The notes beneath the pieces are model-generated. The model saw only the letters and a program-made list of their open reading frames with translations. It searched no databases and was not told the origin of the DNA. This document shows, piece by piece, positions 24,507 to 64,000 of a stretch of DNA of 64,000 nucleotides. The position numbers were made by a program, and so were the translations under genes. Within the stretch, counting starts at the first letter, position 1, and each line of letters starts with the position of its first letter. This DNA comes from Candidatus Latescibacterota bacterium (lineage in GTDB: Bacteria > Latescibacterota > UBA2968 > UBA8231): the NCBI GenBank assembly GCA_965203175.1, contig OZ241867.1, positions 5,408,001 through 5,472,000 on the forward strand, read 5' to 3'.

Positions 24507-26327
24507 CTAAAACGTGAAAAAGCGATGTCTGTTGTCCTCGATCTCGGCTGTCTCGTACAGGTGCATAAACCAGTTCTGCACGGCCTCCTGCTCGCGCTGG
24601 GTCTGCAGTTGAGCGACGACCTGCTCGCGCTGCGCGGCGAATTGCTCCTCATCCACCGGTGTCTTCTCCAGCAGTTTCAGCAAGTAAGCACCTCGATTGC
24701 TACCTTCGGCGACCTCGATCACTTCGCTGAGCCGGCCCTCTTCCAAGCGGAAGGCCGCGCCGATCACTGCGTTAGCACGACCTAGACCCTCCACCGATTC
24801 GGTGCGCGCAAAAGCCTCGGGAGTGTGAAACTCCACCCCGGAATTTTGCGCCGCTTGAGCCAAGGTGGCCCCGGCTCCTACTTCCCGCCGCACGGCCTCC
24901 AGTTGGGCCGCGGCGCGGGCGGCCTTTTTGCGCGCGCGCACCAACGGCTCAAGTCGGTCCGTTAGCTCGTCTAAGGGTGCTACGCCCTCAGGCCGCTTGG
25001 CCACTAACTGCGCCACCCACAGCCCCGAGTCGTCCTCGACGACCTGACTAACGGTCCCAGGCTCCTGTTCAAAAAACCAGTTGACGAGCCACGTCGTGTT
25101 CGCACTGATGCCCGGCATAGCTTGGCTCTTGCGCAGGAAATTCGTAGTCGTCGCCTCGGTGCCAGAGGCTGAGAGCGTGGCCGCAAAGCCCTCGGCTGTG
25201 GCCTGCTCCTGGAACACCTCAGCCCGGCTGCGCAGACTATCTTCAGTCGTGCGCGAGGGCTGGTACCTGAGCAGGATGTGGCGGGCGTGCACCCTCTCCC
25301 CGCTGCTTTCCTCCAAGCGTTCTTCCACCTTGATCAGATGCCAGCCATAGCGCGTCTGCACTGGCTCGGAAAGCTCGCCGGGTGCCAAGGCAAAGGCCGC
25401 TTCCTCAAAGGGCGCAACCATCTGACCGCGACCAAAAAAACCGAGGTCGCCGCCTCGGGCAGCTGAACCTTCGTCATCGGAGACCACTCCAGCCAACTCG
25501 GCGAAATCTGCGCCGGCCTCGATCTCTTGGCGAATTCGCTCAATTTCCTCTTTGATCTCCAGCGAATCCTCAGCGCTGGCCACCTTGGGGAAGGACACGT
25601 ATTCCAGCTTTACCTGATCGGGGTGCTCGTAGTCGGCTGCGTTCTCTTGGTAGTAGGCAGCTAAATCATCGTCGGAGACCTCAATCTCGTCGTCCGCAGC
25701 GTCGCTGGGGGCGAACGCGTATTCGACGCGTACCTTTTCGTTGACCTCAGCAAAGTACTGGCGCGCCTCGCTGGGGCTCACCTGCGCGGTGCCCCGCAAC
25801 ATCCGCTGTAGTCTGTAATCGAGCAATTGCCGCTTAATCATACTCTCGATCCCCAAGACTAAGGCTTGGTTGTTGGGGTCGCTGAGATTGGCCGGATTGC
25901 CGATGAACTGGGCGTACTTGTCCATATCGAACGCGCCGTCGGTTTGAAAGGTCTCGAATTCGCGCACGGCCTGCGGGGGGTTACTCCGCGTGTAATAGGC
26001 GATTTCCCCGTCAGTTATCTCAAAGCCCAAGCGCTCGTACTCTTGGGTTAGGATGATCTCGCGGACGTAGTAGTCCCATACCTGCTGCACGAGCAGGGCT
26101 TGGTCGGCGCGCTGCTCCTGCGGCATCTGGCGCGCCAGCCGCCGCAACGCGTCTTGGAACTCCTGGAGCGAAATGGTCTCGCCATTGATCACGCCGACCG
26201 TATCGCCGGCGGCGTTGGGGCGCGCGCCCGAGTAGTCAGCCCCCCATTCAACGACGATCAAGCCGATGAAGGCGAATATCACAAACCACAGAACGAGCAC
26301 CGTCTTTTGGCGCAACAAAGTCATCAT
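24507..26327 (-). CDS. PpiD/SurA-like peptidyl-prolyl isomerase chaperone
   Basis: N-terminal TM anchor, SurA N-domain, parvulin motif [21 protein letters not shown]...[11 protein letters not shown]. Confidence 0.88.
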
Positions 26328-48589: not shown

Positions 48590-50038
48590 GTGCTCCTGCT
48601 CCTTTTGCTCGCTTGGGGCTGTGCCCGCGACGATCCGCTCCTAGTCGAGGGCCGGCAACACTTCCACAATCGAGACTACCAAGCCGCGATTGTGGTTTTG
48701 CAGCAAGCTGTACAACGCCCGTCCCCGTCGCAAGTCGCCTATCGCTATCTAGGACGTTGCTACCTCCAAGTCGGCCAATACGAGCAAGCGCGAGAAACAG
48801 CGCGCGCTGGCCTAGCTCTGGCCCCCAACGACCCCGAACTCTACGACCTGCTCGGCGCTATCGAGATGACCCGCGCATTCGCCGAGGCCCGCTATAGCGA
48901 TACCGATGCCGCCCTGCGAGCCTTCCAACAGGCCATCAAACTCGACTCGCAACGCGCCACCACCCACTACAACCTCGGCCTCGTGTACAGCTACCGCGAC
49001 AGCGCCCACCTCGCCGAGCGCGCGTATCTATCCGCCTTGCAGGTAGATTCCACGCTCGCGCCAGCCCACAAGAAGTTGGGCCTGTATTACCGACGACAAG
49101 GGGCCTTAGACCAAGCCCTCAGTTATCTACAACGCGCCGTGCAGTACGCACCCGAAGACGCCGAAGCACATTTCCACCGCGGCTTACTACTCCGCGCTCA
49201 AGGGCACTACGACCAAGCCGTCGAGGCGCTAGAGCAGGCCGCCGAACTCAATCCTCATTCTCCGCAAGTCCACTTCAATCTGTCGCAACTCTACTTGCGC
49301 ACCGGGCAGCGCGAACAAGGAGAAAAGGCCCTAGCGCGCTCGGAAATCCTCCGCCAGCACCACCGGGGCATCGGCTCGGAACAATCCCCGCCTGCTGGGA
49401 GCGCAGTGACTGTCGGCTCGGCCACGGCCCGCTACAATCTCGCCCTAAACCTCGCCCTACAAGGCCACTACGACCAAGCCATCCTCGAATATCAAAACGC
49501 TCTCGCCATCAATCCCAAACTAAAAGACGCCCACAGCAGCCTCGGCGTCCTATTCACCTATCAGGGCGATTTGGCCGCGGCAGCCGAGAGCTTTCGCCAA
49601 GCTCTTGCCCTCGACGAAGAAGACCCACTCAGTCACACTCGGTTGGGGATGATCCTCCTCAAGCAGCAACGCTATGCGGAGGCTCGGGCCAGCCTGCTGC
49701 GCGCCGCCGCACTCGACTCTAGCCTGCACGAGGCCGCCTACGGACTCGGCTTGGCTGCGGTCCGCACAGGCGATTTGACCGGAGCCGTCGCTCACTTTGC
49801 TGAGGCCTCCCGACTCAACCCTATGAGCGCCGCCGCACAGTTGAACCTCGGGGTGGCATACGCGAAATTGGCCCGATTCGACGAGGCCGCCCGCGCCTAT
49901 GCCCGCGCCGTTGAGTTGGATCCTGCCAATGACCGCGCCCATCTCTACCTCAGCGACGCCTACCAGCAATTGGGGCATCTGCAAAAAAGCCAAGCGCACC
50001 GCGAAAAAGCACGGCGGTTAGCGCGCGAGGTGCCGTAG
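48590..50038 (+). CDS. Tetratricopeptide repeat lipoprotein
   Basis: Lipobox-like LLAWGC followed by many TPR units (e.g. HYNLGLVY, AQLNLGVAY). Confidence 0.88.
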   Translation: MLLLLLLAWGCARDDPLLVEGRQHFHNRDYQAAIVVLQQAVQRPSPSQVAYRYLGRCYLQVGQYEQARETARAGLALAPNDPELYDLLGAIEMTRAFAEARYSDTDAALRAFQQAIKLDSQRATTHYNLGLVYSYRDSAHLAERAYLSALQVDSTLAPAHKKLGLYYRRQGALDQALSYLQRAVQYAPEDAEAHFHRGLLLRAQGHYDQAVEALEQAAELNPHSPQVHFNLSQLYLRTGQREQGEKALARSEILRQHHRGIGSEQSPPAGSAVTVGSATARYNLALNLALQGHYDQAILEYQNALAINPKLKDAHSSLGVLFTYQGDLAAAAESFRQALALDEEDPLSHTRLGMILLKQQRYAEARASLLRAAALDSSLHEAAYGLGLAAVRTGDLTGAVAHFAEASRLNPMSAAAQLNLGVAYAKLARFDEAARAYARAVELDPANDRAHLYLSDAYQQLGHLQKSQAHREKARRLAREVP

Positions 50039-50157: not shown

Positions 50158-51801
50158 CTATTGACGCGGCTCAACAACGGTCAGGACCTGGTCGGCAGCA
50201 ATGTCTCTCAGCACCTGAACTATCCCGCTGGGCCAGCGTACTTCGAGCCGATCCACGCGCTCGGCCGGTCCCAAGCCAAAGTGCAGCCGCAGATCGTTGT
50301 GCGACAAATAGCTTCCCCCGCTTTGCACCTCGGCGTGCTGGATCTGTCCGCCGGCATGGATAATAACCCGCGCACCAATCCCGTCGCGATTGCTTACCGT
50401 GCCCTCCGTGCGCACCAGCAGGTAGTGATTGCCGTGGTCGCCGTCGTTGCGCAACAGGGTTGGCGGGCCGTTGAGATTGAGAATAAATAAGTCGATGTCC
50501 CCGTCTCCATCGTAGTCAGCGAAACTCGTCCCGCGGCTGACACGACGCAACGCAAAGCCCGCGCCCGCTGCGGTCGCCACCTCCACCAGCCGTCCGCCCC
50601 TATTCTCAAACAGCGAGTTACCTTGTTGGTAGCTAGAGTTGACTCTCGGCAAGTCGGCCTGCGGGTAGGTGTGGCCGTTGGCCACAAAAAGATCGCGATC
50701 GCCGTCGTTGTCGTAGTCGAAAAAGCCCGTGCCCCACGAGACCAATTCGGCCGGTGCAGCCCCGATCCCCACAGCAAAAGACACATCCGCAAAAAATCCT
50801 CTACCCTCGTTCTTGTAGAGCGCGTTGTACTCGTCGGCAAAATTGGTGACAAAGAGGTCGAATAGGCCGTCGTTGTCGTAATCGCCCCACGCGGCCCCCA
50901 TACACCCCTGCGTCACGCCTTCCCCGCTGTACGCCACCCCGGCCATGAGCGCTTCCTCGGCGAAGCGACCATCCCGGCGATTGCGAAAAAGCAGGTTGGG
51001 CGTGGAATCGTTGGCCACGAACAGGTCGGGCCACCCGTCGGCGTCGTAGTCGCCGAACAGGGCACTCATGCCGTAGAACTTTTCGCCTTCCAGCCCGGCC
51101 TGTTTCGTCCACTCGGAGAACGTCCCGTCGCCGTTGTTGCGGTAAAACACATCCGCCGCCGGCAGCAAGCCCACCGGCCCGCAGTACACCTTCACGTTCT
51201 TCCATAGGCAGGGTATTGGGGATTCGTAGTCGAGGGAGAAATCCACGTAGTTGGCCACGTACAAGTCCACGTCGCCATCGCGGTCGTAATCGCCAAAACT
51301 GGCACCCGTGCCCCACCCCATATCGCCTACGCCGGTTTCCACCGTCACATCGGCAAAACGGCCGGCACCCGCATTGCGATACAGGGTATTGCGGCCAAAG
51401 TTGGTAACGTAGAAATCCGAGTGGCCGTCGTTGTCGTAGTCGGCCACCGCACATCCCATTGACCAACTCGTATCGCCCACGTCAGCGGCGACCGTCACAT
51501 CGGCAAAGTGACCACCGTCGTTGCGATAGAGTTGGTTGGCCGGATGCTCGCCTGCGGCAAAGCTCGCAAAGGAAGAGCCGTTGGCCACGTACAAATCCAC
51601 GTCGCTATCGCGGTCGTAATCGAAAAAGGCCGCACCGCCCATCATCCCCTCGACTATGTAGCTTTGGTCAGTGCCTGAGACATTGCGCTGTGTCAAGCCG
51701 GCCGTCACTGCTTGATCGACAAACTGCGCGGCCAGCGACTCGGTCCACCCACTGGTGATCCCGATGAGGCACCCGACCGCGCACTTGTAGAGAGATTTCA
51801 C
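50158..51801 (-). CDS. CRTAC1 / ASPIC-UnbV family protein with FG-GAP repeats
   Basis: Repeated DYDxDGxxDLxVxN; SNRDGIGARV, GGSYLS, LHFGLG, EVRWPSG. Confidence 0.92.
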   Translation of the reverse strand: MKSLYKCAVGCLIGITSGWTESLAAQFVDQAVTAGLTQRNVSGTDQSYIVEGMMGGAAFFDYDRDSDVDLYVANGSSFASFAAGEHPANQLYRNDGGHFADVTVAADVGDTSWSMGCAVADYDNDGHSDFYVTNFGRNTLYRNAGAGRFADVTVETGVGDMGWGTGASFGDYDRDGDVDLYVANYVDFSLDYESPIPCLWKNVKVYCGPVGLLPAADVFYRNNGDGTFSEWTKQAGLEGEKFYGMSALFGDYDADGWPDLFVANDSTPNLLFRNRRDGRFAEEALMAGVAYSGEGVTQGCMGAAWGDYDNDGLFDLFVTNFADEYNALYKNEGRGFFADVSFAVGIGAAPAELVSWGTGFFDYDNDGDRDLFVANGHTYPQADLPRVNSSYQQGNSLFENRGGRLVEVATAAGAGFALRRVSRGTSFADYDGDGDIDLFILNLNGPPTLLRNDGDHGNHYLLVRTEGTVSNRDGIGARVIIHAGGQIQHAEVQSGGSYLSHNDLRLHFGLGPAERVDRLEVRWPSGIVQVLRDIAADQVLTVVEPRQ

Positions 51802-53462
51802 TCCTCCGCTAACCGCTGCATTTCCGCCACGTTTTCCTCGAATAAGGTGACGGAGTATTTCTGCCGTAAACTGCGGACATAGTGCACATAGCCCCTCTTG
51901 GCTTTGTCGATTTTCACGTAAGCCCGGGCCCGACGCTGGGTATCGGCATCGTAGGGCTCTTTTTCCCGCCCTCGATCTATTACCCTAAACACAGAATACC
52001 CCTTCCCTGTGGGCACTGGGCCACCTACTTCGCCTACCTCCAAATGCTGCGCTGCTTCATAAATGCTCGGATAAAAGGCTTGAGTATAAACGTTGAGACG
52101 CAGATTGCCGCTGTGATGCAGGGCTCCTTCCCGCATAGTATGCTGCACGGCTAGCTGGGTCGCATCCGCTCCCTCCTGGAGTTCTCGCTTAAGGCGATAA
52201 GCAAGGGAATCGCTAGGCACCAAGATCTCGGTCACCACGATCGTTTCGGGCGAGGTAAATTTCTCGGGATGGGCGTCGAAGAACGCCTGAGCTTCCTCAT
52301 CGCTAGCGGTCGTGTGCTGATCCACCTCGCGCTGCCGCAGAAGACTGATGAGCAATTCCTCCCGTTTCCTGCTGAGAAAGTCCAGTAGTTCCGGATCCTG
52401 ATCTAGGCCAAGAACCTTGGCTTCTTGGAGGAAGAGGCGTTCCGGTATGAATATGTTCTGCAGCAGAGCCACGACACGACTGCTGTCTGCCAGCTCCCGT
52501 GGAGCGATGCGAATCTTCTGGGCATCCTGAAGAAAGTCGGCGAGCGCAATCTGTCCCCCTTTGAAGGTGCAGAGAGCTTTTTTGCCCGTAGAATCGGACA
52601 AGCTAGCCCCATCTACAGCGCTCAGCAGCGGAATCCTGTGATACATGATCCTAGGCGCATATTCCTCTCTCAACGAATCGAGCAGAGCCTGGGTCCTAGT
52701 CGCCATTTTCCAAGATATCAACTCTTCCCTTATTCTCTGTTCAGACGACTCCAGCGGCACCGGGACGGCGTCCAGGACTTTAAAAACGACATACCCCTTT
52801 TGGCCTTCGTAGGAAAAAGGCACTGGTTCTGAGGTTTCCCCTATTTCTAGATGGAAAACTTTTTCCGCAATGGTTGGCCTTGTTTGGTCTCTCAGCTTGT
52901 ATTTGCCACTATCCCCGCCGTGCTCTCCGGTGTCTTGATGTAATGAGCGCTCGCGGGCGAGTTGCTGGAAATCGGCTCCTGCTTCGAGCGCTGCGACGAC
53001 CTGCTGAGCTTCCTCCCTAGTCTCGATCATGATTCCACCTAGGCGGAGGGCACGATCCCGGTGCGTGGCGCGATAATGCCTGTGTAGTTCTTCATCGGTA
53101 ACTAGCACCTTGTCAACGATCTGTCTTTTTCTATATAGTTTGAGCAGGCGGGATTTTACCTGTTCGTCCATCCGCTTCTGGAATACGGGATCGCTATCGA
53201 TATTCTGGGCATGTGCTTCCCTGAGCAGGAGTTTCAGGTCTATCAGGGCTTCCAGCAGGTTCCTATCGATTTCTAAGGGAGTCTCACCCACCTGCATACC
53301 GGCAGAAACGCGGGACTTGAACGCCTTAAATTCCGAGGAAGAGATCGTCTCGTTCCCTACTATGGCGAGGATAGACTCGGCCTCCGGCAACGGGCGAGAA
53401 TCGTCGGCGAAGGCGATGGTTACGCTAGCTGCCATGAGAAAGGTCAACAGGTATTTTTGCAT
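51798..53462 (-). CDS. Exported peptidyl-prolyl isomerase/chaperone with two parvulin-like domains
   Basis: Signal peptide from ATG 53462; GADFQQLARERS..GGDSG; second domain GEVGGPVPTGKGYSVFRV. Confidence 0.8.
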   Translation of the reverse strand: MQKYLLTFLMAASVTIAFADDSRPLPEAESILAIVGNETISSSEFKAFKSRVSAGMQVGETPLEIDRNLLEALIDLKLLLREAHAQNIDSDPVFQKRMDEQVKSRLLKLYRKRQIVDKVLVTDEELHRHYRATHRDRALRLGGIMIETREEAQQVVAALEAGADFQQLARERSLHQDTGEHGGDSGKYKLRDQTRPTIAEKVFHLEIGETSEPVPFSYEGQKGYVVFKVLDAVPVPLESSEQRIREELISWKMATRTQALLDSLREEYAPRIMYHRIPLLSAVDGASLSDSTGKKALCTFKGGQIALADFLQDAQKIRIAPRELADSSRVVALLQNIFIPERLFLQEAKVLGLDQDPELLDFLSRKREELLISLLRQREVDQHTTASDEEAQAFFDAHPEKFTSPETIVVTEILVPSDSLAYRLKRELQEGADATQLAVQHTMREGALHHSGNLRLNVYTQAFYPSIYEAAQHLEVGEVGGPVPTGKGYSVFRVIDRGREKEPYDADTQRRARAYVKIDKAKRGYVHYVRSLRQKYSVTLFEENVAEMQRLAEE

Positions 53463-53621
53463 AAGCACTGCTTGGATTCTTTCAGTTTTGCAAAAAATAG
53501 TTTGGTTAAGATTTTCAAATCTATTGATTTTTTTCATGCGATCAAATGCCTATAAAATCTTTGGTGATCCGATGGATAATTGGCTAGGTCAGGAATATAA
53601 AACTCAGTTTTGGAGTCATTC

Positions 53622-54632
53622 ATGATGTTAAAAAACACCAAATTCAACGACAGCGAAATGGCACGCATGGCGTCAATATTGATCAAGTACTACCATTTTC
53701 ACAAAAAACAAAAAGACATAGCTCAAGAGATGGGCATTAGTCCCGGCCTAGTGAACACGATCCTGTCACAAGCAAAAAAGAATGGCTTTGTGCAAAACTT
53801 GATTTCCATGCCCAAAGAGAATGTGTTGGCCGCCCATGTCCAAGAATTGTTCTCTCCAGACATTCCAACCCCTAACGCCATCGTGGTACCCTTTTCGAAA
53901 AATATATCCGAGCGAGAACGCCTGCGGGGAATCGGCGTAGCAGCAGCCCGCTACTTCGAAGCCATTGCTCGCGATGGGATCCATATCACCCTCGATGGGG
54001 GAGAGACGATCTTCTGCATGATAGAGGAACTGCGCCGGGCATTTTTGCAGATCGAGGTGTACAGTGTCGCTGGCGGCCCCCAATACGACCCCTATACTTC
54101 CGTGAACCTGCTAGTCAACTGCCTGCTGGTCCAGTTCGGGGCAACGCGGATGAATCCCCATATTCTGCCAGGCCCCAGAGACAAGGATCTACCTATTTAC
54201 AGGAAGAAGGCCCAGAATACCTTGAAAGCAGCCTCGAAAGCTGACGTTTTCTTTCTCGGTGTTGGCGCTTTGGGCCGCTCCCTTTCTAGGACCAATAGGA
54301 AAAACATGGACGATCTAGGCATAGATTACAAGAAACTACAGGATCGGGGTATCGTCGGCATCAGTGCTTACTCGGCTTTCGATGCCGAAGGAGAGCATAT
54401 TGTCTGCGAACTAGACGAAAAGATCCTCAAGGTCGCACCTGAACAAATTAAAAAAGCGGCCAGAAGCCGGAACAGGCATGTCGTCATCTTAGCCTACGGC
54501 CTCCCTAAGGTCAAGGCTCTGCGCGCCATGTTAAAAGGAGGCTGGGGCAACTGTCTGATCACCGACAGCAGCACGGCCGAAAAGCTTCTCGATAAGAACG
54601 AACATATTTCCAAGCACTTCACTCCTATCTAA
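53622..54632 (+). CDS. SorC/DeoR(LsrR)-family sugar-binding transcriptional regulator
   Basis: YY..KQKDIAQEMGIS..VNTIL..AKKNGFV HTH; GGET, LGVG, LITDSSTAEKLL. Confidence 0.85.
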   Translation: MMLKNTKFNDSEMARMASILIKYYHFHKKQKDIAQEMGISPGLVNTILSQAKKNGFVQNLISMPKENVLAAHVQELFSPDIPTPNAIVVPFSKNISERERLRGIGVAAARYFEAIARDGIHITLDGGETIFCMIEELRRAFLQIEVYSVAGGPQYDPYTSVNLLVNCLLVQFGATRMNPHILPGPRDKDLPIYRKKAQNTLKAASKADVFFLGVGALGRSLSRTNRKNMDDLGIDYKKLQDRGIVGISAYSAFDAEGEHIVCELDEKILKVAPEQIKKAARSRNRHVVILAYGLPKVKALRAMLKGGWGNCLITDSSTAEKLLDKNEHISKHFTPI

Positions 54633-54699
54633 AACCATAGGACCGGCTGGCGGGTTTGGTCCCCACTGTTAAAAACAAACGCTATTGGCAAATGCTTTA

Positions 54700-54790
54700 G
54701 GGGAGATCATTATATTCGATATAAATTTATTCAATTTATTTGAAGTTTTTACTTAATTCTCTTTATATTGTCTAAACATCGATGCTAGGT
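54700..54790 (+). promoter_or_regulatory. Very AT-rich promoter/operator region upstream of the secreted-protein operon
   Basis: ATAAATTTAT palindrome (54721-54730) and repeated AATTTATT in an otherwise GC-rich window. Confidence 0.5.
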
Positions 54791-54855
54791 GGGTTTAATG
54801 CGTCTTCTGAGCCTCTTTTTGGCAGTACATAGGCCCTAGACCCAGGTGGTTTGAG

Positions 54856-57120
54856 GTGTTTGAAAAATCACACTTATCCAGACTAGTCCTAGCAGGACTA
54901 GCCGCGCTCGTCTCGATAGCTAGTCGATGCACGGCGGAAGTTGTCGTCGTGGGTGGCAGTCGAGGATTGGGCTGGGAAAGCGGCGGCGGCAGCATTCCGG
55001 CCACCGTCATCCGAACCGCCCGCACTGTCGAGCGCACCAACGCGCCGGGCGGCGTCATCGACTTTGCCCCCCAAGACAGGCCCAACTGGATCTTTCCGCA
55101 ACGCGCCGATATCACAGCCAATATCGCCGTGGGGGCCAACAGCGAAGAGCGAGGCGGCAGCATCCTCTCCCTCAACTCCTCCCGCGGAGCCGAGTTCGCC
55201 AAAATGATCGATGACGACGGAACTACGGCTTTGGATATGCGCCAAGCTTCTCCCTTACTGGGCGTTATCATCGATCTCGACCTAGGATCTCGCTTCGGAA
55301 TCAACCGCTTCAAATTCTTCCCGCGCAACGCCGACCCCGACTATCCGGCTCCCGATTTTCCCTTTCAGAACAATTTTATCCGGGGTTTCGAACTCTTCGT
55401 CAACGACGGCACTCCGCAGGCTCAGCTAGAAGGGGTGCCGATCTTTGAGACCGTGATCCTCCAGACTCAGAACGACAACGCGGTGGTGGACATCAGCATA
55501 GAGCCACAGTACGTCCGCTTTATCCGTCTGAAGTCTCTGACTACGGTCGGTTTTGAAATCGCCGAATTTCAGGTCTTCGGCACCGGATTCGTACCCGAAG
55601 CTCGCTACGTTTCGAATGTATTCGATTTTGGCGACCTCGCGCTGGTGGGCAAGCTGCGCTGGCTGGAGGAGAAGGAGGGAGACACAGAGCGGTCTAAAGT
55701 GGAGATCCGTACGCGTTCGGGGTTGGACCCGCAGCCTATCGAGTTCAACAAAATTCGTCCCGGCGAGCGCCTCTTCCGAGTAGGCGGCGGCACGGGCACC
55801 GATACCGGGATCATTAGCAGCGTGTACCGGGGAGGCATCAACACCTCCGAGGTAGAGGTACCGTGGAAACAGGCTAAAGATGTAGAGGACGAAGAACTCA
55901 AAACGCTGATCGAGACCGTCTTAGACAACGACGCAATCGACGCGCGGGAAGCCTTTCGAGTCTTCAAGGAGCTACCCTTGGAAAAGCAGGCCTTGATCGT
56001 TATAGATCAGGGAGATTACACCAGACTGAGCAATGACGACAAAGGCGGCATTCGCGATGACCTGACCAACTGGAGCGATTGGTCCCCCCCCCAAGCGCGT
56101 GCCGGGGTCGTTGCCAGCGAAGAGGAACTAGAGGACACCGGTCTGGGCGTCCAGGTCTTCTCACTCGTGCCCCGGCGCTATTTCCAGTTCTCCATCGACT
56201 TTTTCAGTGACGATTTCAGTGCCTCTACGGGCGTTGGCGGTCTGGCTTTCGAAGTGTTATCACCCCCCTTTGCTGCGGAACTGATCGCCGAGATCGCGCC
56301 GCGCACGGCCATTTTAGGGCAGAGGACTGACTTTATATACGCCGTGCGGAATCGCTCTAGGCCTGGACAGGACCGGGGTTTTGATCGCTTCGAAATCGAT
56401 ACGCCGGTGCGGGTTGAATCAATTGGACGGATCGAAATAGAGCAAGTAGATGGTACCGTGCAGGAAGCCGACTTCTCAACCGTTTCTTTAGATGCACTGC
56501 CCCTATCCCAGAACGGTTTCAGCGTTCTAGAGGTGCGCGAGGACGGTTTCGTCATTGCCTTTAACCCCATCGTCGAGGACGGCGTGCTGCTTAAAGTGGC
56601 GTTCGCGGGAACCGTCCTGCGCTTTGGTACAACTTTTACCGGCCGGGCCCGACACAGCCAAGCGAATTCGACCATCGGCCAAGGGGTCATTGCGGGCAAC
56701 GCGGCAGATTTGAGTCCGCTGGGTTTTGCCGATATCGATCAGCAACCAGTGGGCACTCCAGTGGCCCGCAACCTCTCCGTAGCCGGCCCCCTCGTCGGAG
56801 ATTTGCTCATAAATGTGAGAGCCAAGCCGGCTGTCTTTACCCCCAACGAGGATGACCTCAACGACCGGACATTTATCCAATACGATATTACTAGCCTACG
56901 GCGACTCTCGCCGGTAGCAGTGCGCATCTTCGACCTAGCCGGCCGTCTGGTCAGAAATCTTTACCAAGATCAGGACCTCAGCGGCCGCTTTACCCGCTCT
57001 TGGGACGGGAGAGACGAGCAAGGCAATCTCGTGCCGCCGGGGCACTACGTGTTTAGCGTTTCTCTGACCGCTGGGACGGGGAAAGTAGAAGAAGCAGGCT
57101 TGGTTGGTGTGGTCTATTAG
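54856..57120 (+). CDS. Secreted protein with discoidin/galactose-binding-like domain and C-terminal FlgD-Ig/T9SS-like sorting domain
   Basis: Signal peptide; IIDLDLG..FFPR, VRFIRL..EIAEFQVFG; C-terminal FTPNEDDLND..IFDLAGRLVR..WDGRDEQGNLVPPGHY. Confidence 0.75.
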   Translation: MFEKSHLSRLVLAGLAALVSIASRCTAEVVVVGGSRGLGWESGGGSIPATVIRTARTVERTNAPGGVIDFAPQDRPNWIFPQRADITANIAVGANSEERGGSILSLNSSRGAEFAKMIDDDGTTALDMRQASPLLGVIIDLDLGSRFGINRFKFFPRNADPDYPAPDFPFQNNFIRGFELFVNDGTPQAQLEGVPIFETVILQTQNDNAVVDISIEPQYVRFIRLKSLTTVGFEIAEFQVFGTGFVPEARYVSNVFDFGDLALVGKLRWLEEKEGDTERSKVEIRTRSGLDPQPIEFNKIRPGERLFRVGGGTGTDTGIISSVYRGGINTSEVEVPWKQAKDVEDEELKTLIETVLDNDAIDAREAFRVFKELPLEKQALIVIDQGDYTRLSNDDKGGIRDDLTNWSDWSPPQARAGVVASEEELEDTGLGVQVFSLVPRRYFQFSIDFFSDDFSASTGVGGLAFEVLSPPFAAELIAEIAPRTAILGQRTDFIYAVRNRSRPGQDRGFDRFEIDTPVRVESIGRIEIEQVDGTVQEADFSTVSLDALPLSQNGFSVLEVREDGFVIAFNPIVEDGVLLKVAFAGTVLRFGTTFTGRARHSQANSTIGQGVIAGNAADLSPLGFADIDQQPVGTPVARNLSVAGPLVGDLLINVRAKPAVFTPNEDDLNDRTFIQYDITSLRRLSPVAVRIFDLAGRLVRNLYQDQDLSGRFTRSWDGRDEQGNLVPPGHYVFSVSLTAGTGKVEEAGLVGVVY

Positions 57121-57170
57121 GTTTGGTCTAGACGCGACAGAAACTTCAATCCAGGAGAGAAAGACTTAAA

Positions 57171-59969
57171 GTGAACATCGCCAAGAACTGTCTCCTCGTC
57201 GGCCTGGCCTGTTTCCTGCTCTGCGCCGGGATACTGGACGCCCAGAGCTACGATTCTCGCATCGGCATGCAACGCGGGGGTAAGGTAAGTTTTGAACCTC
57301 GGGGGCCCGGCGTGTTATTCGGGGCGCTCGATCCGGCCGTAAAGAAGTGGTATGTCCCCCAAGAACTTTTCCTCGATTATTCCTGGCGCCAGTGGGAATA
57401 TTCCAACTACGCCAGAGATCCGTACCAGCGCTACGTCAACACCTCGCTAGAAGGTGGCTATTTCTACGATTTCTACGGCAATTTCATCGGTCACGGCTGG
57501 CTAATCTACGACTGGCGCCAGAATCAGCCCCAGCAACTGGGCAGCGGCATTTTCCAAGACACTCGCTTCAGCCGTTGGTTCAATTCAGTGACTATCGGCG
57601 GCGATGCGAAAGGACAGTACTTCTACTCAATCACTGTGGGCAATCGCATCCGCACCACGCTCACCCCCATGACATTCTCCAAACCCACTTTTAACGGGGT
57701 ACAGCTCGATTTTGCCTCTGACAAGTACCACGCCACTATTCTGGCTTCGCGCATCAGCGATCCTATTTCCGGAGCGACCCGCGAACCTGTTGTTCGCACC
57801 AATCAGACGACCTTTTTCGGAGGTCGAGCTACCTTCCAAGTGGGAGACTTCGTAGAGCTGGGAGCAACTCTGGTCAACGCCCACAATGCCAACACGGCCC
57901 TCGATCTGTTCGGCGGCGATCTCTTTGCCGGCAATCTGACCAACGGCCAGAGCAGTACCCCGCTAACGGCTATCGCCGTCGTCCTCAGCGACGATTCGCC
58001 CCAAGACGGCGAGGGAGGAACGGCTCTTTTCAACCACGACATGCGCATCGTCAGCCGGGATTTCGAGACCGATGAAGAGAGTGTTTTTACGCTCCAGGAA
58101 GTCACGCGGCCCGGAGCCGAATGGCCCATCGTCTTCGGGGGATTTGTCCGTCCAGACTTTCTGGCCGCCGATGGACAGGAGCGCATCGTCCTCAACTACG
58201 ACTTTAACGACCCAGGCTATATCGGTCCAGATCCCACCACTATCGTCAAGGTAGAGTTTGACTATCTGGTAGGAAACGACTTCAAGATAGAAATGTGGTC
58301 GGACCGACAAAGCGGCCGGCACGACACGCCGATCCCCCCACTGAGTCCCGAGACCATCGACAGCGCTCGCCCCGCTCTAGCGACTGTGCGCCGGGCACCG
58401 GGCAATATTAAAGACACCTCCAACCTGCAGCGGGTTCGTTTCGACTATGGGCTGCCCACGGCCAACCTAGTAGGCGGCTTCTCCATAGAGGGGACCGATG
58501 TCTGGGGATTCGACTTCTACGGAGAGTGGGACCGCAACAAGCGCTTTACCCAGTACCCAAACGCCGCGCTCTTTAGCGCCAACGAGATACACAAGATATC
58601 ATCTCAAGACGCCGACGCCTGGAACTTCAACCTCTCCAAACAAGCCTATCCCTGGTTCTTCTATGCGGAGGGATACTCATTTGACGAAGCCTACTCTACT
58701 ACGGCATTCATTGTGGACTCCAGAGGCGATGTGCAGTACGACAATACCCAGCGCTATCTGTACGAGTTCGTCGACGATAACGACGACCAAGACCGCTTCC
58801 CCGACTGGATCCGCTTCGGCACGCTTAACGACCTGCTGATCTTTCCGGGGTGGGACGAGAACAACGATTTCATCAACGACTTCAACCAGAACGACAACGA
58901 AGCAGTAACCAACACTATTCCCGACTACGAAGAGCCTTTCCTGCGCTACGAAGTAGATCGCCCCGAATTCCTCTTCGGCATCGATCTAAACAACAACGCT
59001 TGGATCGACCGCTTTGAAGACGACGATTTGCCCGACTATCCCTACAAGCCCGACCGCCGCGGCTACAATATCTTTGCTGGTGTGCATATCGCGCCGGATG
59101 TGCGCCTGACTATCGGGCGCACGGATGAGGAGCAGCCATCAGAGGGCCGTCATAACCAGACGGACTACCTGCTGCTGACCTTTGATGGCGATTACCCCGG
59201 CTTGGGGCGAGTGCGCGTCTTTGATATGCTCAAACGAGCAGAAGATGCTATCGCGGACGACCGGCGCGAACCGGCACCCTACATAGAATCGGCGGTCATC
59301 CAGCCCCTAGTGCCCGACCTGCTACCGGCCCAGAACACCTATATCAACACGCTCTGGATCGGGTTCGATTATAAGGGCATTGAGCATCTCAATTTCGTCA
59401 ACAAACTCAAATACGAGACCTTCCATCAGCAAGAGGATCGCCCACGCGATATCGAGGGACGTTCTCTCCGGGACAGATCCAATCTGTTCGGCCTAGTGAA
59501 CAAGATCGACTATTTGTACGGATTGGGCCGCCTCGATCTACAGCCCAAGTTCAAAAGCGAATATTTGCGGCGCACACCCTTCCTCGCCGAAGAGAAAGAG
59601 CTTCGTAGCTGGACGGGCACGGCTCTGCTGCTGGCTCGGCTGCCCATCCTGCGACATACCGTCCTTGAAGGGGGGTTGGAAGTTCTGCGATTCCGGGACC
59701 TGTGGGTGGACGAAAATGAGATGCTAGACCAAGGCATCGCTGGTCAGACTGGAGACCTGAACTCAACTACCATCGCCGTCCAGCTAGCCAACTCCTCGGC
59801 CTACCAAGGGTACCAGCTAACCACCCTGCTGGGCCTGCGCTTTAGTCGCATTGGAGCGGAGCGGGTGATACGCAAAGATCCACGCGCCAATCCGTCTCTA
59901 TTCGAAAAGGATATAAAGACCAGCAACGAAACCGTCACTTTCATAACGGTCTATGCCGGTTTGGAATGA
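57171..59969 (+). CDS. Large exported hypothetical protein, putative outer-membrane beta-barrel with Asp-rich Ca-binding-like loops (paralog A)
   Basis: 932 aa; signal peptide; alternating aromatic/hydrophobic strands; VDDNDDQD, DENNDFIND, DLNNNAWID; AGGAG RBS. Confidence 0.7.
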   Translation: MNIAKNCLLVGLACFLLCAGILDAQSYDSRIGMQRGGKVSFEPRGPGVLFGALDPAVKKWYVPQELFLDYSWRQWEYSNYARDPYQRYVNTSLEGGYFYDFYGNFIGHGWLIYDWRQNQPQQLGSGIFQDTRFSRWFNSVTIGGDAKGQYFYSITVGNRIRTTLTPMTFSKPTFNGVQLDFASDKYHATILASRISDPISGATREPVVRTNQTTFFGGRATFQVGDFVELGATLVNAHNANTALDLFGGDLFAGNLTNGQSSTPLTAIAVVLSDDSPQDGEGGTALFNHDMRIVSRDFETDEESVFTLQEVTRPGAEWPIVFGGFVRPDFLAADGQERIVLNYDFNDPGYIGPDPTTIVKVEFDYLVGNDFKIEMWSDRQSGRHDTPIPPLSPETIDSARPALATVRRAPGNIKDTSNLQRVRFDYGLPTANLVGGFSIEGTDVWGFDFYGEWDRNKRFTQYPNAALFSANEIHKISSQDADAWNFNLSKQAYPWFFYAEGYSFDEAYSTTAFIVDSRGDVQYDNTQRYLYEFVDDNDDQDRFPDWIRFGTLNDLLIFPGWDENNDFINDFNQNDNEAVTNTIPDYEEPFLRYEVDRPEFLFGIDLNNNAWIDRFEDDDLPDYPYKPDRRGYNIFAGVHIAPDVRLTIGRTDEEQPSEGRHNQTDYLLLTFDGDYPGLGRVRVFDMLKRAEDAIADDRREPAPYIESAVIQPLVPDLLPAQNTYINTLWIGFDYKGIEHLNFVNKLKYETFHQQEDRPRDIEGRSLRDRSNLFGLVNKIDYLYGLGRLDLQPKFKSEYLRRTPFLAEEKELRSWTGTALLLARLPILRHTVLEGGLEVLRFRDLWVDENEMLDQGIAGQTGDLNSTTIAVQLANSSAYQGYQLTTLLGLRFSRIGAERVIRKDPRANPSLFEKDIKTSNETVTFITVYAGLE

Positions 59970-62938
59970 CCATGACACCGGGCATCGCGCTACATATTTG
60001 CCGCTTTTGGGGAGCCCTTTCGCTAATTGTCGTCCTAACTCTTCCCCTCGCCGTCGAAGGGGACTACGGCAACCGCTTGGGCCGGCGGACGAGCGGACAG
60101 ACGACTTATACGGCAGTGGGTCCGAGCATTTTGCTAGAGGCCCTAGATCCAAGCGTGCAGCGGTGGTATTTGCCTCAAGAATTATTCGCCGAGTACGGCC
60201 GACGCCAGTGGCAGTACACCAACTACGCCCGCGAGCCCTACCGGCGCTATCTAGAACGCCAACTTGAAGGGATTCATTTTTACGACGATTTCGGCTCATT
60301 TGTCACCCGAGGCTGGATCATCTACGATTGGCGGCAGACCCGTCCGCGTCCCTTCCAGAGCAGTCAACTCACCAAGCCCGGACGCTACGAAACTTGGTTT
60401 CAGCGCCTAGTCATCGGCAAAGACAGGAGTGGGGACTACGGCTACTCAATCCTCATCGGCGACGAGATCAACGCCACATTAACTCCCATGACGTTCCGCA
60501 AGGCTGGCTTTAACGGGATCGCAACCAGCCTAGTTGGCGACCGCTTCCGGGCCACCGGGCTGTTTTCCAGAATTTCGGCTCCAATCGTCGAGATTGATTA
60601 TCTGGCCCCCACAGTGGCCCTGTCTAATTCCACCAACCTTTCAGCAGGACGATTCGAAGCCGACCTAACCGATTTCCTGACTTTGGGCCTGACTGCTGTG
60701 AATTCCCACAACGTCCGCGGCTCGCGGGAAAGCTTCAGGGACAATCCCTTTAAGGGCATGCTGACTGCGGGGCAGCTAAGTAGGCAAACAAACCTGTTGG
60801 TCGTGCGTCTCAGCGACGACTCTCCAGAGGACGATGAAGGTGGGGCTGTGCTCTTCAGCGAGGATGTGGAGATCACGACCACCCTGCTTCAGCGGATCGA
60901 GGTCGCCGACAGCGTGCAGGTGGTGCCCATCGACACGGTCATCACAGGCAGCAGCATCGGATTCCACGCTGCGCGCGAGGGCGGCAGCGTGCGCGACGGG
61001 TTCCTGACGGCTGACGGAGCCGAAAGTATTACCCTCAAATACGTCCTGAGTCCTGGAGAGACCGAAAGCGAAGAGAGCAGCCTGCGTTTCCTGATGCAGC
61101 GGCATTTCAAGCTAACTCTAGCAGAAGCCGAAGACGCAATAAACGCCATCAGCAATGTGCGCTTCCGCTTGGTGCTGGCCAACGACTACCGAGTCGAGGT
61201 GACTTCCGACCGGCAAACCAACCTCGATGGCCAGCCGCAATTTCTCCTAGTCGAGCGGGCCATCGGCAATATCAAGAACCGCTTGAACCAACGCCAAGTG
61301 GTCTTCGACTACGGCCTACCTACCGCCCATCTGATCTACGGGATCACTGCCGAAGTGCGAAATTTCTATGGCTTCGATTTCTACGGTGAGTTCAACCTCA
61401 GTACTCGGTACCGCAAATATCCGGCCATCAACCGCGAAAAACACCGGGCTATTGCCGGTACTTCAGGCGACAGAGAGGCCGTCGGCTGGATGATCAACCT
61501 GACCAAACGCGTAGGCCCCTGGCGCTTGTTCGCCGAGGCCTTCGGCATGGACGACGAATACAGCACCAGCATCAAGCCAGTAGATGGCCGTGGCATAGTT
61601 GACTTTTCACCCGAAGCCACGAACCGTCTGTACGACTTTGTCGATGACAACGACGACAACGACCGCCATCCAGACCAGATTCGTTTCAATCAGGGCAGCC
61701 TGATCCCGATCCCAGGTCAGACAGCGTTCTCGATCCGCGAGGAGGGCGTGCCCGACCCGGCAGTTTTTCCCGGATACGATGAGAACGGCGATTTCATTTC
61801 CGATTTCAACCAGAACAGCAACAGTGAGCGGCCCAACTTCTTCCCCGACTACGACGAACCGTTTCTGCGCTACAGTTCGGACCGCCCCGAGTTCCTCTTC
61901 GGCATCGACCTGAACAACAATGGCTGGATTGACCGCTTCGAAAACGACGACTTGCCAGACTATCCGTACAAAAAAGATCACTGGGGCTACAACCTCTACA
62001 GCAGCGTCCAAATCAATCCCGCAGTCAAAATAACTCTGGGGCACCTGAACCAAGTGCAGCGAAAGACCGACCGCAGGAATAAGACTACCTACGGCATCTT
62101 CACCCTAGAACGGGACTGGCCGACCTGGGGAAGGGTCCGGATTTTCGATATGCTCAAAAAGGCCGAGGACGATATTCCCGATCCACTCTCCCAGTGGATC
62201 ATGCCCCGCACGCTGTTCGGACAGGCCGGAGAGACCAGCGGCAGCAATATGGCCGTACCCGATCCACTGGCTGCGGAGAACACTTGGATCAATACATTCT
62301 ACATCGATTGGGAATATGCCAGCCCGCGTCAGTGGAGTACGCGGCACCGATTCAAGTGGGAGGTTTTCAGGCAACGAGAGATCGACAAAGGATTCTCGCT
62401 GGACGAAGCAGGGAACATCCTTTTAGATAAGCAGGAGAATCGGCTAGCAGGTTTTGATCCCTTGGGAGCGGAGCCTCGCGATGGCCGTCGGACCTCCGGG
62501 ATGGTAGGGCTGATTGACAAAGTCGATTGTAATTTAACTTGGAGAGAACTAACGTTTTTGCCCAGATTTAAAAGTGAGTTCCTACACGTCGTGCCCTTTG
62601 AGCAGAACGAGGATACGCAGCGGACTTGGGATGCGCTCTTTTTCTTTATGACCGAAGTGCCTTTTTTGCAAAATACCCGCGTCCAGCTAGGCTTGGAGCA
62701 GAGGCTATTCTACAACCTCAAAGGGAAGGAGGACAATCTGCTTACTGGCACTTTGACTGGAGATTTTCGCGGCACCGTTTTCGCCTTGCAACTATCGACT
62801 ACCCATCCATACTCGGGGTACTCTTTAACCACGCAGTTGGGGCTGCGCTACGACAGGCGCTCCTTAGAAGCGGCCACTGATGAACGCAAGATACGGACTT
62901 CGGGATTGGCCTTCCTGTCGATGTTCGTCGGCCTGTAA
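59966..62938 (+). CDS. Large exported hypothetical protein, paralog B of 57171..59969
   Basis: 990 aa; colinear conserved blocks with paralog A along its full length; ATGA overlap. Confidence 0.7.
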   Translation: MTMTPGIALHICRFWGALSLIVVLTLPLAVEGDYGNRLGRRTSGQTTYTAVGPSILLEALDPSVQRWYLPQELFAEYGRRQWQYTNYAREPYRRYLERQLEGIHFYDDFGSFVTRGWIIYDWRQTRPRPFQSSQLTKPGRYETWFQRLVIGKDRSGDYGYSILIGDEINATLTPMTFRKAGFNGIATSLVGDRFRATGLFSRISAPIVEIDYLAPTVALSNSTNLSAGRFEADLTDFLTLGLTAVNSHNVRGSRESFRDNPFKGMLTAGQLSRQTNLLVVRLSDDSPEDDEGGAVLFSEDVEITTTLLQRIEVADSVQVVPIDTVITGSSIGFHAAREGGSVRDGFLTADGAESITLKYVLSPGETESEESSLRFLMQRHFKLTLAEAEDAINAISNVRFRLVLANDYRVEVTSDRQTNLDGQPQFLLVERAIGNIKNRLNQRQVVFDYGLPTAHLIYGITAEVRNFYGFDFYGEFNLSTRYRKYPAINREKHRAIAGTSGDREAVGWMINLTKRVGPWRLFAEAFGMDDEYSTSIKPVDGRGIVDFSPEATNRLYDFVDDNDDNDRHPDQIRFNQGSLIPIPGQTAFSIREEGVPDPAVFPGYDENGDFISDFNQNSNSERPNFFPDYDEPFLRYSSDRPEFLFGIDLNNNGWIDRFENDDLPDYPYKKDHWGYNLYSSVQINPAVKITLGHLNQVQRKTDRRNKTTYGIFTLERDWPTWGRVRIFDMLKKAEDDIPDPLSQWIMPRTLFGQAGETSGSNMAVPDPLAAENTWINTFYIDWEYASPRQWSTRHRFKWEVFRQREIDKGFSLDEAGNILLDKQENRLAGFDPLGAEPRDGRRTSGMVGLIDKVDCNLTWRELTFLPRFKSEFLHVVPFEQNEDTQRTWDALFFFMTEVPFLQNTRVQLGLEQRLFYNLKGKEDNLLTGTLTGDFRGTVFALQLSTTHPYSGYSLTTQLGLRYDRRSLEAATDERKIRTSGLAFLSMFVGL

Positions 62939-62987
62939 GAAGGGAGGGTCTCTTGGCCTACCGCATTGAGAAAAGGGACTGGAAAAT

Positions 62988-64000
62988 ATGAGACATACTC
63001 TGTGGCTCTGCCGACTCAGTGCATTGGCTCTGCTGCTGACCGGTACGATAGGATGGGCTCAGCAGCGGGGACATCGGATCGGCAGCGCTGAGGTCCTCGT
63101 CAATACCCGGAATCACTGGCAGAACTGGGAGTTCCCCGCGGGAACCGTGGAGATTTCCGCCACAGGCACAGTACGGCCCCGTCAATTGCGACGAGGGACC
63201 AACGCGGTGGAGGATATAGTTGAATTTCTACGGCGGCATCCTCCGGGTAATTTAACCAAGAAAGACCCCGAACAAATCAGTCTGACTGATGCCATCCAAG
63301 CCGGCTCCAATCCAGAGGATGTGATCCACGTCCTAGATGGCGACCCGAGCACTTACTGGGAGCCCGATCCTCCTCGGAACCCAGACAATCTCGCTTCGGA
63401 GTGGTGGTTCACCGTCGATTTGGGGCGGCTCGTCTTTGCTAAGAAGATAGTAGTGCGATTCGCCCAAGAGGGAGATCCGTTTCTCTTGTTTGAACTGCTC
63501 GTAACCGACGGGCAGAAACGGGCTCAGTTTCCGCGCCCAACCTTCAAGACCGTTCTTCGCACTCTGCAACCCAACAGGAGCGAAAGGCTCTTCGAGATTG
63601 ATCTAACAGACAGCGAAGTAAAGGGTCAGGCCGTGCGCTTATTTCAGGTGCTCGTCAGCGGCAGCAACCTAGGCCGCAGCCAAGAACTTACTCAGGAAGA
63701 ATACAATGCTCTGTCGGCCCCCGATCGAGGTGCGATCGAATACTACAAGCGTCTGCCCGACGGAGGCAGCTTCAGAGTCGAGAAGGAGGTTTATGAACAA
63801 CTGTCGGTGGAGCAGCAGGGGGACGTTCGCCATTTCCGGCGCGAGCGACCCCGGCTAGCAGAAGTGGAAGTATGGAGCGAAGGAGATGAGATAGTCGGCG
63901 GCGCTATCGAACGAGGCGGTCGGCTATCGACCAGCCAGCCGGCTGCTGCAACCGGCAACTTCGTCGATGGCGATCCAAACAGCAAGTCGCGCCTGCCCTG
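62988..64000 (+). CDS. Secreted discoidin-like domain protein (partial; runs off the window end)
   Basis: Open frame from ATG 62988: MRHTLWLCRLSALALLLTGTIGWA signal; LDGDPSTYWEP, WFTVDLGRLVFAKKIVVRF, LAEVEVW, second VDGDPNS. Absent from the ORF track because it has no stop in the window. Confidence 0.8.
   Translation, partial: MRHTLWLCRLSALALLLTGTIGWAQQRGHRIGSAEVLVNTRNHWQNWEFPAGTVEISATGTVRPRQLRRGTNAVEDIVEFLRRHPPGNLTKKDPEQISLTDAIQAGSNPEDVIHVLDGDPSTYWEPDPPRNPDNLASEWWFTVDLGRLVFAKKIVVRFAQEGDPFLLFELLVTDGQKRAQFPRPTFKTVLRTLQPNRSERLFEIDLTDSEVKGQAVRLFQVLVSGSNLGRSQELTQEEYNALSAPDRGAIEYYKRLPDGGSFRVEKEVYEQLSVEQQGDVRHFRRERPRLAEVEVWSEGDEIVGGAIERGGRLSTSQPAAATGNFVDGDPNSKSRLP

Follow-up and report, generated by a model that had tools for sequence, protein, structure and literature searches.

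A repeated envelope cassette of Latescibacterota, built of lectin-like proteins and paired giant outer-membrane barrels, as a possible surface capture and uptake device

The window analyzed here is a 64,000-nucleotide stretch (G000:C1:5408001-5472000) of the single-contig, closed 6.58-Mb genome of a Candidatus Latescibacterota bacterium, and its far end holds two giant outer-membrane barrels, a and b, encoded among lectin-like proteins, a locus that an earlier reading of the letters without database searches (the sequence-only reading) had put forward as a candidate cell-surface system. We find that the locus holds a single, complete copy of a Latescibacterota envelope cassette that occurs repeatedly and is composed of barrels a and b, three lectin-like proteins (A1-A3) and the proteins K (double-parvulin), G (secreted and CBM9-like) and E (a membrane protein with DUF6785/DUF6784). 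The arrangement is confirmed as real and lies far beyond chance, because homologs number over 1000 and the same arrangement is seen at 40 loci of this genome and at 79 foreign loci. As for function, we tentatively favor a surface capture and uptake device in which lectins displayed by the type IX secretion system (T9SS) feed a channel made of the a/b barrels, a reading whose contacts and transport steps we infer throughout. By analogy, such a cassette would be functionally akin to the uptake core of a polysaccharide utilization locus (PUL), with parts unrelated to SusC and SusD.

When a hidden Markov model (HMM) of the barrel family was run over the open reading frames (ORFs) of the genome and the neighbours were clustered by BLAST, 62 barrel genes fell into 40 loci; the system, which the sequence-only reading had treated as one locus, is instead a cassette repeated 40 times in its own genome. 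The 5184 ORFs were called by a simple longest-ORF heuristic, so that some starts are possibly wrong and some negative gaps artefactual. All 40 loci have an A gene within seven genes of a barrel, and the same span holds K in 34 loci, G in 32, E in 26, a family of ~250-aa lipoproteins (Q) in 15, and in 32 a cluster, B, in which BLAST clustering merged TPR with FG-GAP/UnbV proteins. Counted across the genome, 124 of the 169 lectin-like A proteins, which bear a C-terminal domain (CTD), lie within seven genes of a barrel, as do 35 of the 38 double-parvulin K proteins and 64 of the 124 B proteins within six; 34 of the 44 CBM9-like G proteins (~300 aa) and 16 of the 18 Q lipoproteins, which have no Pfam match, are near a barrel, and the 60 E proteins divide into 29 near a barrel and 31 away from cassettes. 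The core genes sum to 625 kb, or 9.5% of the genome. Their commonest order is G-A1-A2-A3-barrel a-barrel b-K(-E), with an A gene directly upstream of 43 of the 62 barrels, usually across a gap of a few bases. The proposed co-occurrence of the large paralogs with discoidin/FlgD proteins and a parvulin is thus borne out in the genome itself, and it recurs elsewhere, with an A gene directly upstream in 65 of the 79 foreign loci and K in 62.

In a tree of the 62 barrels, clade follows position in the cassette. The paired cassettes yield two sister clades that branch alike internally, one made up of their ten first-position barrels and the other of their ten second-position barrels, and triple-barrel loci contribute one clade per position. 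Because the first- and second-position clades mirror each other, whole cassettes were copied after an old a/b split. Within the 14 adjacent barrel pairs the gaps run from -62 to +89 bp, and five pairs overlap by ATGA, as had been noted for the present pair and is read directly at 59966-59969. The sequence-only reading had further proposed a heteromeric outer-membrane complex; the part of this proposal that finds support is the a/b pair, which would fit both the mirrored clades and the coupled genes. Median paralog identity over the ten paired cassettes falls from 52.5% for barrel a through 45.3% (b), 44.4% (A3), 39.1% (A2), 37.2% (A1) and 34.0% (G) to 28.1% for K. Constraint is strongest on the channel-like parts, whereas the binders and K show the greatest variation, and specificity may lie in the partners of the barrels.

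A separate class of divergent two- and three-barrel cassettes, at 2.79, 5.64, 6.16 and 6.51 Mb (L121/L122, L158/L159, L168/L169, L174/L175), forms its own deep clade. Its companions are a 1080-1090-aa TPR/YfiO-like protein (three loci), a DUF4159 protein (three), a MotA/ExbB gene (three) and one full CBM9 protein, and because a MotA/ExbB gene travels with these cassettes there are hints that the class is energised by proton motive force.

Beyond the genome, a protein search with the barrel returned 1066 relatives, all unnamed or 'hypothetical', and the barrel profile, run against 1.84 billion representatives, hit 942 clusters at 50% identity, of which 335 reached E<=1e-30. The HMM mapping that had been proposed for range, copy number and neighbours describes a family found mostly under Latescibacterota labels, with 62 copies in the present genome and A, K, G and E as neighbours. 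By taxon label the 79 foreign loci are Latescibacter* (60), Gemmatimonad* (16), Planctomycetota (1), Myxococcales (1) and 'uncultured bacterium' (1); near-identical loci bear different labels, and we therefore suspect that the labels outside Latescibacterota reflect mislabelling, not true spread. A barrel was called in 78 of these loci, a barrel pair in 69, at least three A genes in 60, G in 51 and E in 25. One of them, L027, is the ortholog of the present locus (94% identity), with the same gene order including the regulator. Among 151 sampled genomes of the phylum, which are related and not independent, 93 carry the barrel at E<=1e-20: all 63 genomes of the organism's own family do so, whereas two further families of its class have it in 0 of 30 and 0 of 19 genomes. 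No description of the module was found in the full-text literature searched, supplementary files being outside the search.

Barrels a and b share 39% identity over 1012 columns. Neither matches a Pfam or NCBIfam family, 44 aligned family members gave no meaningful Pfam match at E<=1, and phmmer and profile searches found no match among PDB sequences, so that the earlier placement of the large paralogs outside any characterised family stands, and at the level of sequence the barrel family is new. An AlphaFold2 model of barrel a from the 44-row alignment (predicted local distance difference test (pLDDT) 71, predicted template-modelling score (pTM) 0.63) consists of long antiparallel strands across residues 139-930, ~26-28 of them by manual count on the DSSP string, with low-confidence stretches at residues 22-146 and 535-625. 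The best Foldseek match was SlpA (8ae1_A, E 1.7e-7), with LptD, MtrB, porins and TonB-dependent transporters also matched, all at template-modelling (TM) scores of only 0.11-0.25. The VIA search, which is independent of Foldseek, likewise gave no clear winner: the top match was FhaC (Z 14.1, 274 residues aligned, root-mean-square deviation (rmsd) 11.2), and SlpA 7zgx_A aligned over 412 residues (Z 12.1, model residues 138-932). These matches are only generic outer-membrane barrels at rmsd 5-14 Å, and therefore no family assignment was taken from them. Because the fold searches return only such barrels, and no soluble folds, the modelled a/b proteins fall among outer-membrane barrels of the largest size class, in agreement with their earlier description as outer-membrane proteins. 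SlpA_C (PF21620) scored below its cut-off of 35 bits in 2 of 12 divergent family members (22.2 and 16.8 bits) and had no match in barrels a and b, in which Pfam found no SLH domain; we take this sequence signal as a lead to, at most, a very remote relation.

The paralogs were said to be free of TonB plug and POTRA motifs, and Pfam agrees, detecting no Plug, POTRA, two-partner-secretion (TPS) or usher domain. Plug and TonB_dep_Rec (PF07715, PF00593) are absent at E<=1 from barrel a and from 44 family members including barrel b, and the same Pfam library does detect both in the window's TonB-dependent receptor at 15959-19117. On inspection by eye no TonB box is evident in the barrel consensus. 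An Asp/Asn-rich insert of barrel a contains an EF-hand-like loop whose D605, N607, N609, D613 and E616 are invariant in the 44-row alignment; barrel b has such a loop at residues 648-659, and the strict pattern occurs in 37 of the 44 aligned homologs and in 27 of the 62 paralogs of the genome. The N-terminal segment is aromatic-rich, with many invariant W/Y/P positions in the alignment, and the last strand is F-I-T-V-Y-A-G-L-like in most paralogs.

The A proteins combine a lectin-like fold with a T9SS-type tail. In the AlphaFold2 model of A3 (pLDDT 87, pTM 0.77), residues 85-245 form a CBM32/discoidin sandwich that VIA matched best to 4a42_B (CpGH89 CBM32-6; Z 15.7, rmsd 2.0 Å, 123 residues aligned) and then to dozens more CBM32 and F5/8C entries. 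Outside this sandwich the model shows Ig-like sandwiches and a helical insert, and over residues 487-754 it is similar to PorU in that protein's C-terminal part (Z 12.4); neither the model nor the fold searches revealed a catalytic domain. FlgD_ig scores 36.6 bits (cut-off 27), and this 754-aa protein is therefore a discoidin plus FlgD protein, as described in the sequence-only reading, with the discoidin domain visible in the model and missed by Pfam. The ORF cut by the window end had been called a second discoidin protein: as a partial sequence it scored a sub-cut-off 22 bits to F5_F8_type_C, and at full length this A2 protein reaches 35.8 bits (cut-off 28.2), with FlgD_ig at 28.6 bits. CHU_C, the family of T9SS type-B signals, scores 32.5, 27.0 and 32.9 bits in A3, A2 and A1, respectively, against a cut-off of 27. 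Types were assigned by HMMs seeded from three paired cassettes, which are less reliable for divergent classes; A3 received 706 bits from its own model versus 265 and 113 from the other types.

The genome encodes core parts of the machinery that such tails call for, and the earlier comparison of the FlgD-Ig tail with T9SS sorting domains gains from both the CHU_C scores and these genes. SprA (490 bits, or 618 including neighbours in frame) and the PorU sortase (632 bits) exceed their cut-offs, and PorU lies directly upstream of a PorV-like gene (G000:C1:2958744-2963097) that scores 147 bits, under the cut-off of 250. TIGR04131 reached 26.2 bits on T9SS cargo, under its cut-off of 35; GldK gave only sub-threshold, FGE-sulfatase-like partial matches, and GldM had no match in the genome, the control genomes being equally silent. 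No PorP/SprF was found in the genome at cut-off, the one TIGR03519 match being of 21 bits (cut-off 90.55) and falling on the PorV-like gene, and barrels a and b match neither TIGR03519 in NCBIfam nor PF11751 in Pfam. For residues 139-932 of barrel a paired with the C-terminal domain of A3 (640-754), complex prediction returned 'no answer' with a score of 0.00, which is evidence neither way. As a side observation, the PorU C-terminal domain matches at least 50 further ORFs (51 of 231 candidates scored), and the T9SS cargo set of this genome is therefore very large.

K carries parvulin stretches at residues 172-255 and 412-523 by Pfam and no SurA_N domain, unlike the PpiD-like gene of the window at 24507-26327, which has SurA_N and one parvulin domain; its NCBIfam equivalog scores are all far below the cut-offs. 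With 35 of its 38 paralogs beside barrels, this peptidyl-prolyl isomerase (PPIase) is locus-specific and distinct from the separate PpiD at 24.5 kb, as had been suggested. A strict lipobox pattern is present in 24 of 35 K paralogs, and the copy in the window has, by eye, a plain signal peptide. G itself has no Pfam match; its nearest ESM Atlas clusters, at 0.97, carry CBM9_1 in 13-37% of their members, and 4 of 16 G-type proteins scanned match CBM9_1, one of them at 8.4e-10. E is polytopic, with 10 hydrophobic segments and a weak ESM Atlas lead, at 0.80, to OPT-type peptide transporters; the term 'DUF6785' was not mentioned in the full-text literature searched.

The Q lipoproteins (for example L101:4800-5597 and L176:4216-4935) occur mainly with single-barrel cassettes and in some of the divergent two- and three-barrel loci, and in none of the ten paired a/b cassettes. 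Pfam gave nothing meaningful on eight of them. Q might take the place of barrel b or serve as a partner within the lumen.

The regulator of the present locus scores 96.3 bits to PF04198 (cut-off 27), with NCBIfam scores to DeoR (79 bits) and LsrR (42 bits) that are both far below cut-off and weak helix-turn-helix (HTH) matches at residues 22-62 (Sigma70_r4_2 25.2 bits, HTH_24 20.2 bits). The sequence-only reading was right that a SorC-family gene is present and mistaken in counting it as part of the system: the gene is single-copy in the genome and, among the 79 foreign loci, found only in the ortholog L027. Because it is unique to the present locus and its ortholog, we rejected it as a module component and regard it as a locus-specific add-on.

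The surroundings of the cassettes were surveyed by scanning 210 flank proteins of the 40 loci with Pfam at E 1e-6 and 1e-9. These were chosen from 354 accessory ORFs by taking at most 10 members of cluster B, at most 3 of each other cluster and all singletons, with a minimum length of 180 aa; 213 qualified, of which 3 had already been scanned. The flanks contain three sulfatases, three FGE-sulfatase enzymes and three GDSL esterases, four SBP_bac_1 and two SBP_bac_5 binding proteins with ATP-binding cassette (ABC) permeases, enzymes of sugar-acid metabolism (enolase-superfamily, UxuA, aldolase, GFO/IDH/MocA, aldo-keto-reductase), one FGGY kinase, six PhyH dioxygenases and several peptidase-type proteins. 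Regulators vary from locus to locus and include a hybrid kinase, a protein resembling an extracytoplasmic-function (ECF) sigma factor and a two-component pair. Across the genome there is one SusD_RagB match (outside the present locus), no SusD-like_3 match, and 32 Plug matches versus 62 cassette barrels. True PULs are usually rich in glycan-cleaving enzymes; the setting of the cassettes has the copy number, the diversification, the regulators and the import genes of a PUL landscape, but not its enzyme density. Two further observations concern individual flanks: three large proteins with a Spermine_synth domain (L113:5459-8248, L130:2523-5063 and L132:2131-4575; 929, 846 and 814 aa) stand beside cassettes, and two Receptor L domain repeat proteins (L111:5432-6466 and L112:25-1404) flank the paired cassette at 1.47 Mb, a domain match that is unusual for bacteria.

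In the putative mechanism for capture and uptake, the A proteins would be exported through the inner membrane by Sec and through the outer one by the T9SS of the genome, whereupon A1-A3 would remain on the surface and bind glycan-bearing substrates via their CBM32 modules, perhaps assisted by G. The a and b barrels would together form a heteromeric channel that moves the captured material across the outer membrane, with two conserved features, the acidic EF-hand-like loop of invariant residues and the aromatic-rich segment at the N terminus, as a candidate plug or gate. K may assemble these unusually large barrels or receive substrate in the periplasm, and E would carry products over the inner membrane. 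In the present copy only, the SorC-type repressor would sense a phosphorylated sugar product and release the operon. Several observations weigh against this assignment. The barrels come without a Plug domain or a recognised TonB box, and Pfam finds no energy-coupling gene at the present locus; the proposed plug is a guess, because the N-terminal 125 residues and the acidic insert were modelled at low confidence. E is missing from 14 of the 40 loci, and its one tie to transporters is the Atlas lead already described. Conservation within the cassette is lowest in K, and this would suit a helper under loose constraint no less than a specific partner. Only 4 of the 210 flank proteins have a classical domain for glycan cleavage or a related one (PL4, GH5, a GH2-type sugar-binding domain and a 3-keto-disaccharide hydrolase), and 60 of the 210 have no Pfam family at the E-values used.

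The main rival is a display platform through which nothing passes, in which the barrels would anchor co-encoded T9SS cargo in the role of PorP/SprF and the A proteins would act as adhesins or lectins for particles, algae or hosts. We consider this doubtful, yet it accounts for the CHU_C-type (type-B-like) tails above the Pfam cut-off, for the A gene that so often directly precedes a barrel across a few bases, and for the scarcity of carbohydrate-active enzymes nearby; it would also supply the surface anchor that 169 A-family proteins need in a genome with no PorP/SprF at cut-off. PorP/SprF barrels are ~300 aa, however, and barrels of ~900 aa and ~26-28 strands greatly exceed the size that anchoring would require, just as three A proteins per one or two barrels is an odd ratio for anchoring. 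The PorU sortase, which is present, could attach cargo without a protein anchor, and the polytopic membrane protein, the sugar ABC importers and the catabolic genes that accompany the cassettes are points against display alone.

Dedicated secretion is a less probable use of the barrels. Here each barrel or pair would export the A proteins that belong to it without recourse to the T9SS, in a manner like two-partner secretion or an usher, with K as the periplasmic cargo chaperone. The tight A-barrel gene order, the co-encoded chaperone and the VIA likeness of the barrel to those of FhaC, CdiB and the ushers (Z 14.1, 13.8 and 9.6) are what one would expect of such pores, but these matches are generic (rmsd 7-12 Å) and tied with porins and BamA, Pfam found no POTRA, TPS or usher domains, and the cargo already bears a T9SS signal in a genome with SprA, PorU and a PorV-like gene. 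Least probable of all, and by our estimate quite improbable, is a structural or export role, either as SlpA-like envelope tethers or as outer-membrane pores that export a polymer such as exopolysaccharide. The Deinococcus SlpA barrel as best Foldseek match, the sub-threshold SlpA_C scores of the two divergent members and the TPR proteins often found nearby all lean this way; against it, TM-scores to SlpA are only 0.17-0.19, Pfam found no SLH or coiled-coil domain, the cassettes contain no glycosyltransferase or polymerase set, and a tether would hardly call for as many as 62 paralogs, spread over 40 diversified cassettes. We therefore retain capture and uptake through the a/b barrels as a tentative preference.

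The features of the present locus are collected in Table 1.

Table 1. Genes and intergenic regions of the present cassette copy and its immediate neighbours (window positions; entries prefixed L009 lie beyond the window)
Feature	Position	Strand	Basis
TPR protein, 482 aa (accessory cluster B)	48590..50038	+	Pfam TPR families
FG-GAP/UnbV_ASPIC (CRTAC1-like) exported protein, 547 aa (cluster B)	50158..51801	-	FG-GAP_3 172.8 bits, UnbV_ASPIC 86.5 bits
K, double-parvulin PPIase-like protein, 579 aa	51798..53537	-	Rotamase_2 92 bits, Rotamase 65 bits
Divergent intergenic region between K and regulator, AT-rich	53538..53609	.	Read directly
SorC/DeoR-family regulator, 340 aa	53610..54632	+	PF04198 Sugar-bind 96.3 bits
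AT-rich leader/control region 5' of operon	54633..54855	.	G+C 0.478 for 54500-54999
A3-type lectin-like surface protein, 754 aa	54856..57120	+	AlphaFold2 model, Pfam, HMM typing
Barrel a, 932 aa, first-position clade	57171..59969	+	AlphaFold2 model, tree
Barrel b, 990 aa, second-position clade	59966..62938	+	Paralogy to barrel a, tree
A2-type lectin-like protein, full length 843 aa	62988..64000 (open at window end; stops at G000 5473519)	+	Genome sequence
A1-type lectin-like protein, 666 aa	L009:3576-5576	+	FlgD_ig 40.5 bits, CHU_C 32.9 bits
G, CBM9-like secreted protein, 305 aa	L009:5720-6637	-	ESM Atlas neighbours
E, DUF6785/DUF6784 membrane protein, 629 aa	L009:6856-8745	-	DUF6785 293 bits, DUF6784 82 bits

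By HMM typing, the gene order K<, regulator, A3, a, b, A2, A1, G<, E< represents a full, rearranged set. The layout described in the sequence-only reading is reproduced in its essentials: the four co-oriented, tightly packed ORFs lie at the coordinates given for them and each opens, by eye, with a signal-like hydrophobic segment; the double-parvulin and CRTAC1 genes are divergent on the minus strand and supported by Pfam; and the AT-rich control region before the operon corresponds to a drop in G+C to 0.44-0.48 at 53500-54999, against 0.51-0.60 in the surroundings. Retrieval of the downstream sequence, which had been recommended, completed A2 and added A1, G and E as three more cassette genes, of which G and E are convergent to the operon, 3' of A1.

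Elsewhere in the window, a GH32 enzyme (a fructan or sucrose hydrolase family) is encoded at 45503-47131 (-), 6.7 kb upstream of the cassette. It was rejected as part of the present cassette and its link to it is weak, because the orthologous locus L027 has no ORF of its size (542 aa). Another membrane protein with DUF6785 (416 bits) and DUF6784 (96 bits), of 654 aa, is encoded at 577-2541 (-), far from any barrel. The TonB-dependent receptor on which Plug was detected is SusC-like (minus strand, 1052 aa, with CarbopepD_reg_2, Plug and barrel), and the protein adjoining it at 19358-21352 has an internal FlgD_ig and a GSDH/DUF7133 domain.

Latescibacterota are an uncultured phylum widespread in soil and sediment, and outer-membrane nutrient uptake by polymer degraders is understood almost wholly via TonB-dependent SusCD systems and porins. 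A 2015 genomic study of Latescibacteria assumed non-specific porins (PMC4454575). The present genome spends ~9.5% of its 6.6 Mb on an unannotated machine around a barrel family without a Pfam or NCBIfam model, and whether importer, anchor or secretor, the cassette is probably the main interface between cell and substrate. A bolder version, which we hold to be rather unlikely as a whole, would make it a third, independently evolved nutrient-uptake locus in which T9SS-displayed CBM32 lectins deliver glycans or glycoproteins to heteromeric, calcium-gated giant barrels without TonB plugs, the co-diversifying K works in the periplasm as receiver or ratchet, and DUF6785 serves as the permease of the inner membrane, in ~40 substrate-specific copies that fill a tenth of the genome. 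The barrels offer structural work a new large-barrel architecture, the cassettes give DUF6785/DUF6784 a first genomic context, and the cassette genes can serve as markers when metagenomes and metatranscriptomes of Latescibacterota are interpreted.

Among known systems, the SusC/SusD PULs of Bacteroidota, in which a TonB-dependent barrel works with the surface glycan-binding lipoproteins SusD/E/F, share with the cassette the many diversified copies per genome, the coupling of a barrel gene to genes for surface carbohydrate binders, the copy-specific regulators, and the catabolic and import genes alongside. Both use CBM-type beta-sandwich binders, and the SusE-like BT2857 matches the A3 CBM at Z 11.9. 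The cassette differs in having no Plug, TonB_dep_Rec or SusD, in barrels that are larger and a/b-paired, in binders that are T9SS cargo and not lipoproteins, in its parvulin and DUF6785 membrane protein, and in the few glycoside hydrolases of its flanks. T9SS cargo with a type-B CTD has cognate PorP/SprF barrels, as in the SprB-SprF pair of Flavobacterium johnsoniae, and the cassette is similar in that a gene for CHU_C-tailed cargo adjoins an outer-membrane barrel gene in a genome with T9SS core genes; its barrels, however, have no TIGR03519 match and are ~3x longer, and its set comprises two barrels and three cargo proteins. SlpA (8ae1, 7zgx), LptD-LptE (5iv9) and MtrB-MtrA (6r2q) are comparable in barrel size and gave the best Foldseek matches (E 1.7e-7 to 2.5e-6), with MtrB (6r2q_B) aligned by VIA to 417 residues of barrel a across 138-932 (Z 9.8). 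These barrels also have a lumen partner or plug, a place that the small lipoprotein Q could take in single-barrel cassettes, but they have no sequence relation to the cassette barrels, the TM-scores are only 0.16-0.25, and the cassette is without SLH, OstA or cytochrome partners. Thus, in its working the cassette is closest to a SusCD PUL or to a T9SS cargo-anchor pair while departing from what defines either, and we conclude that it is new as a system, with a barrel that resembles SlpA, LptD and MtrB in size class only.

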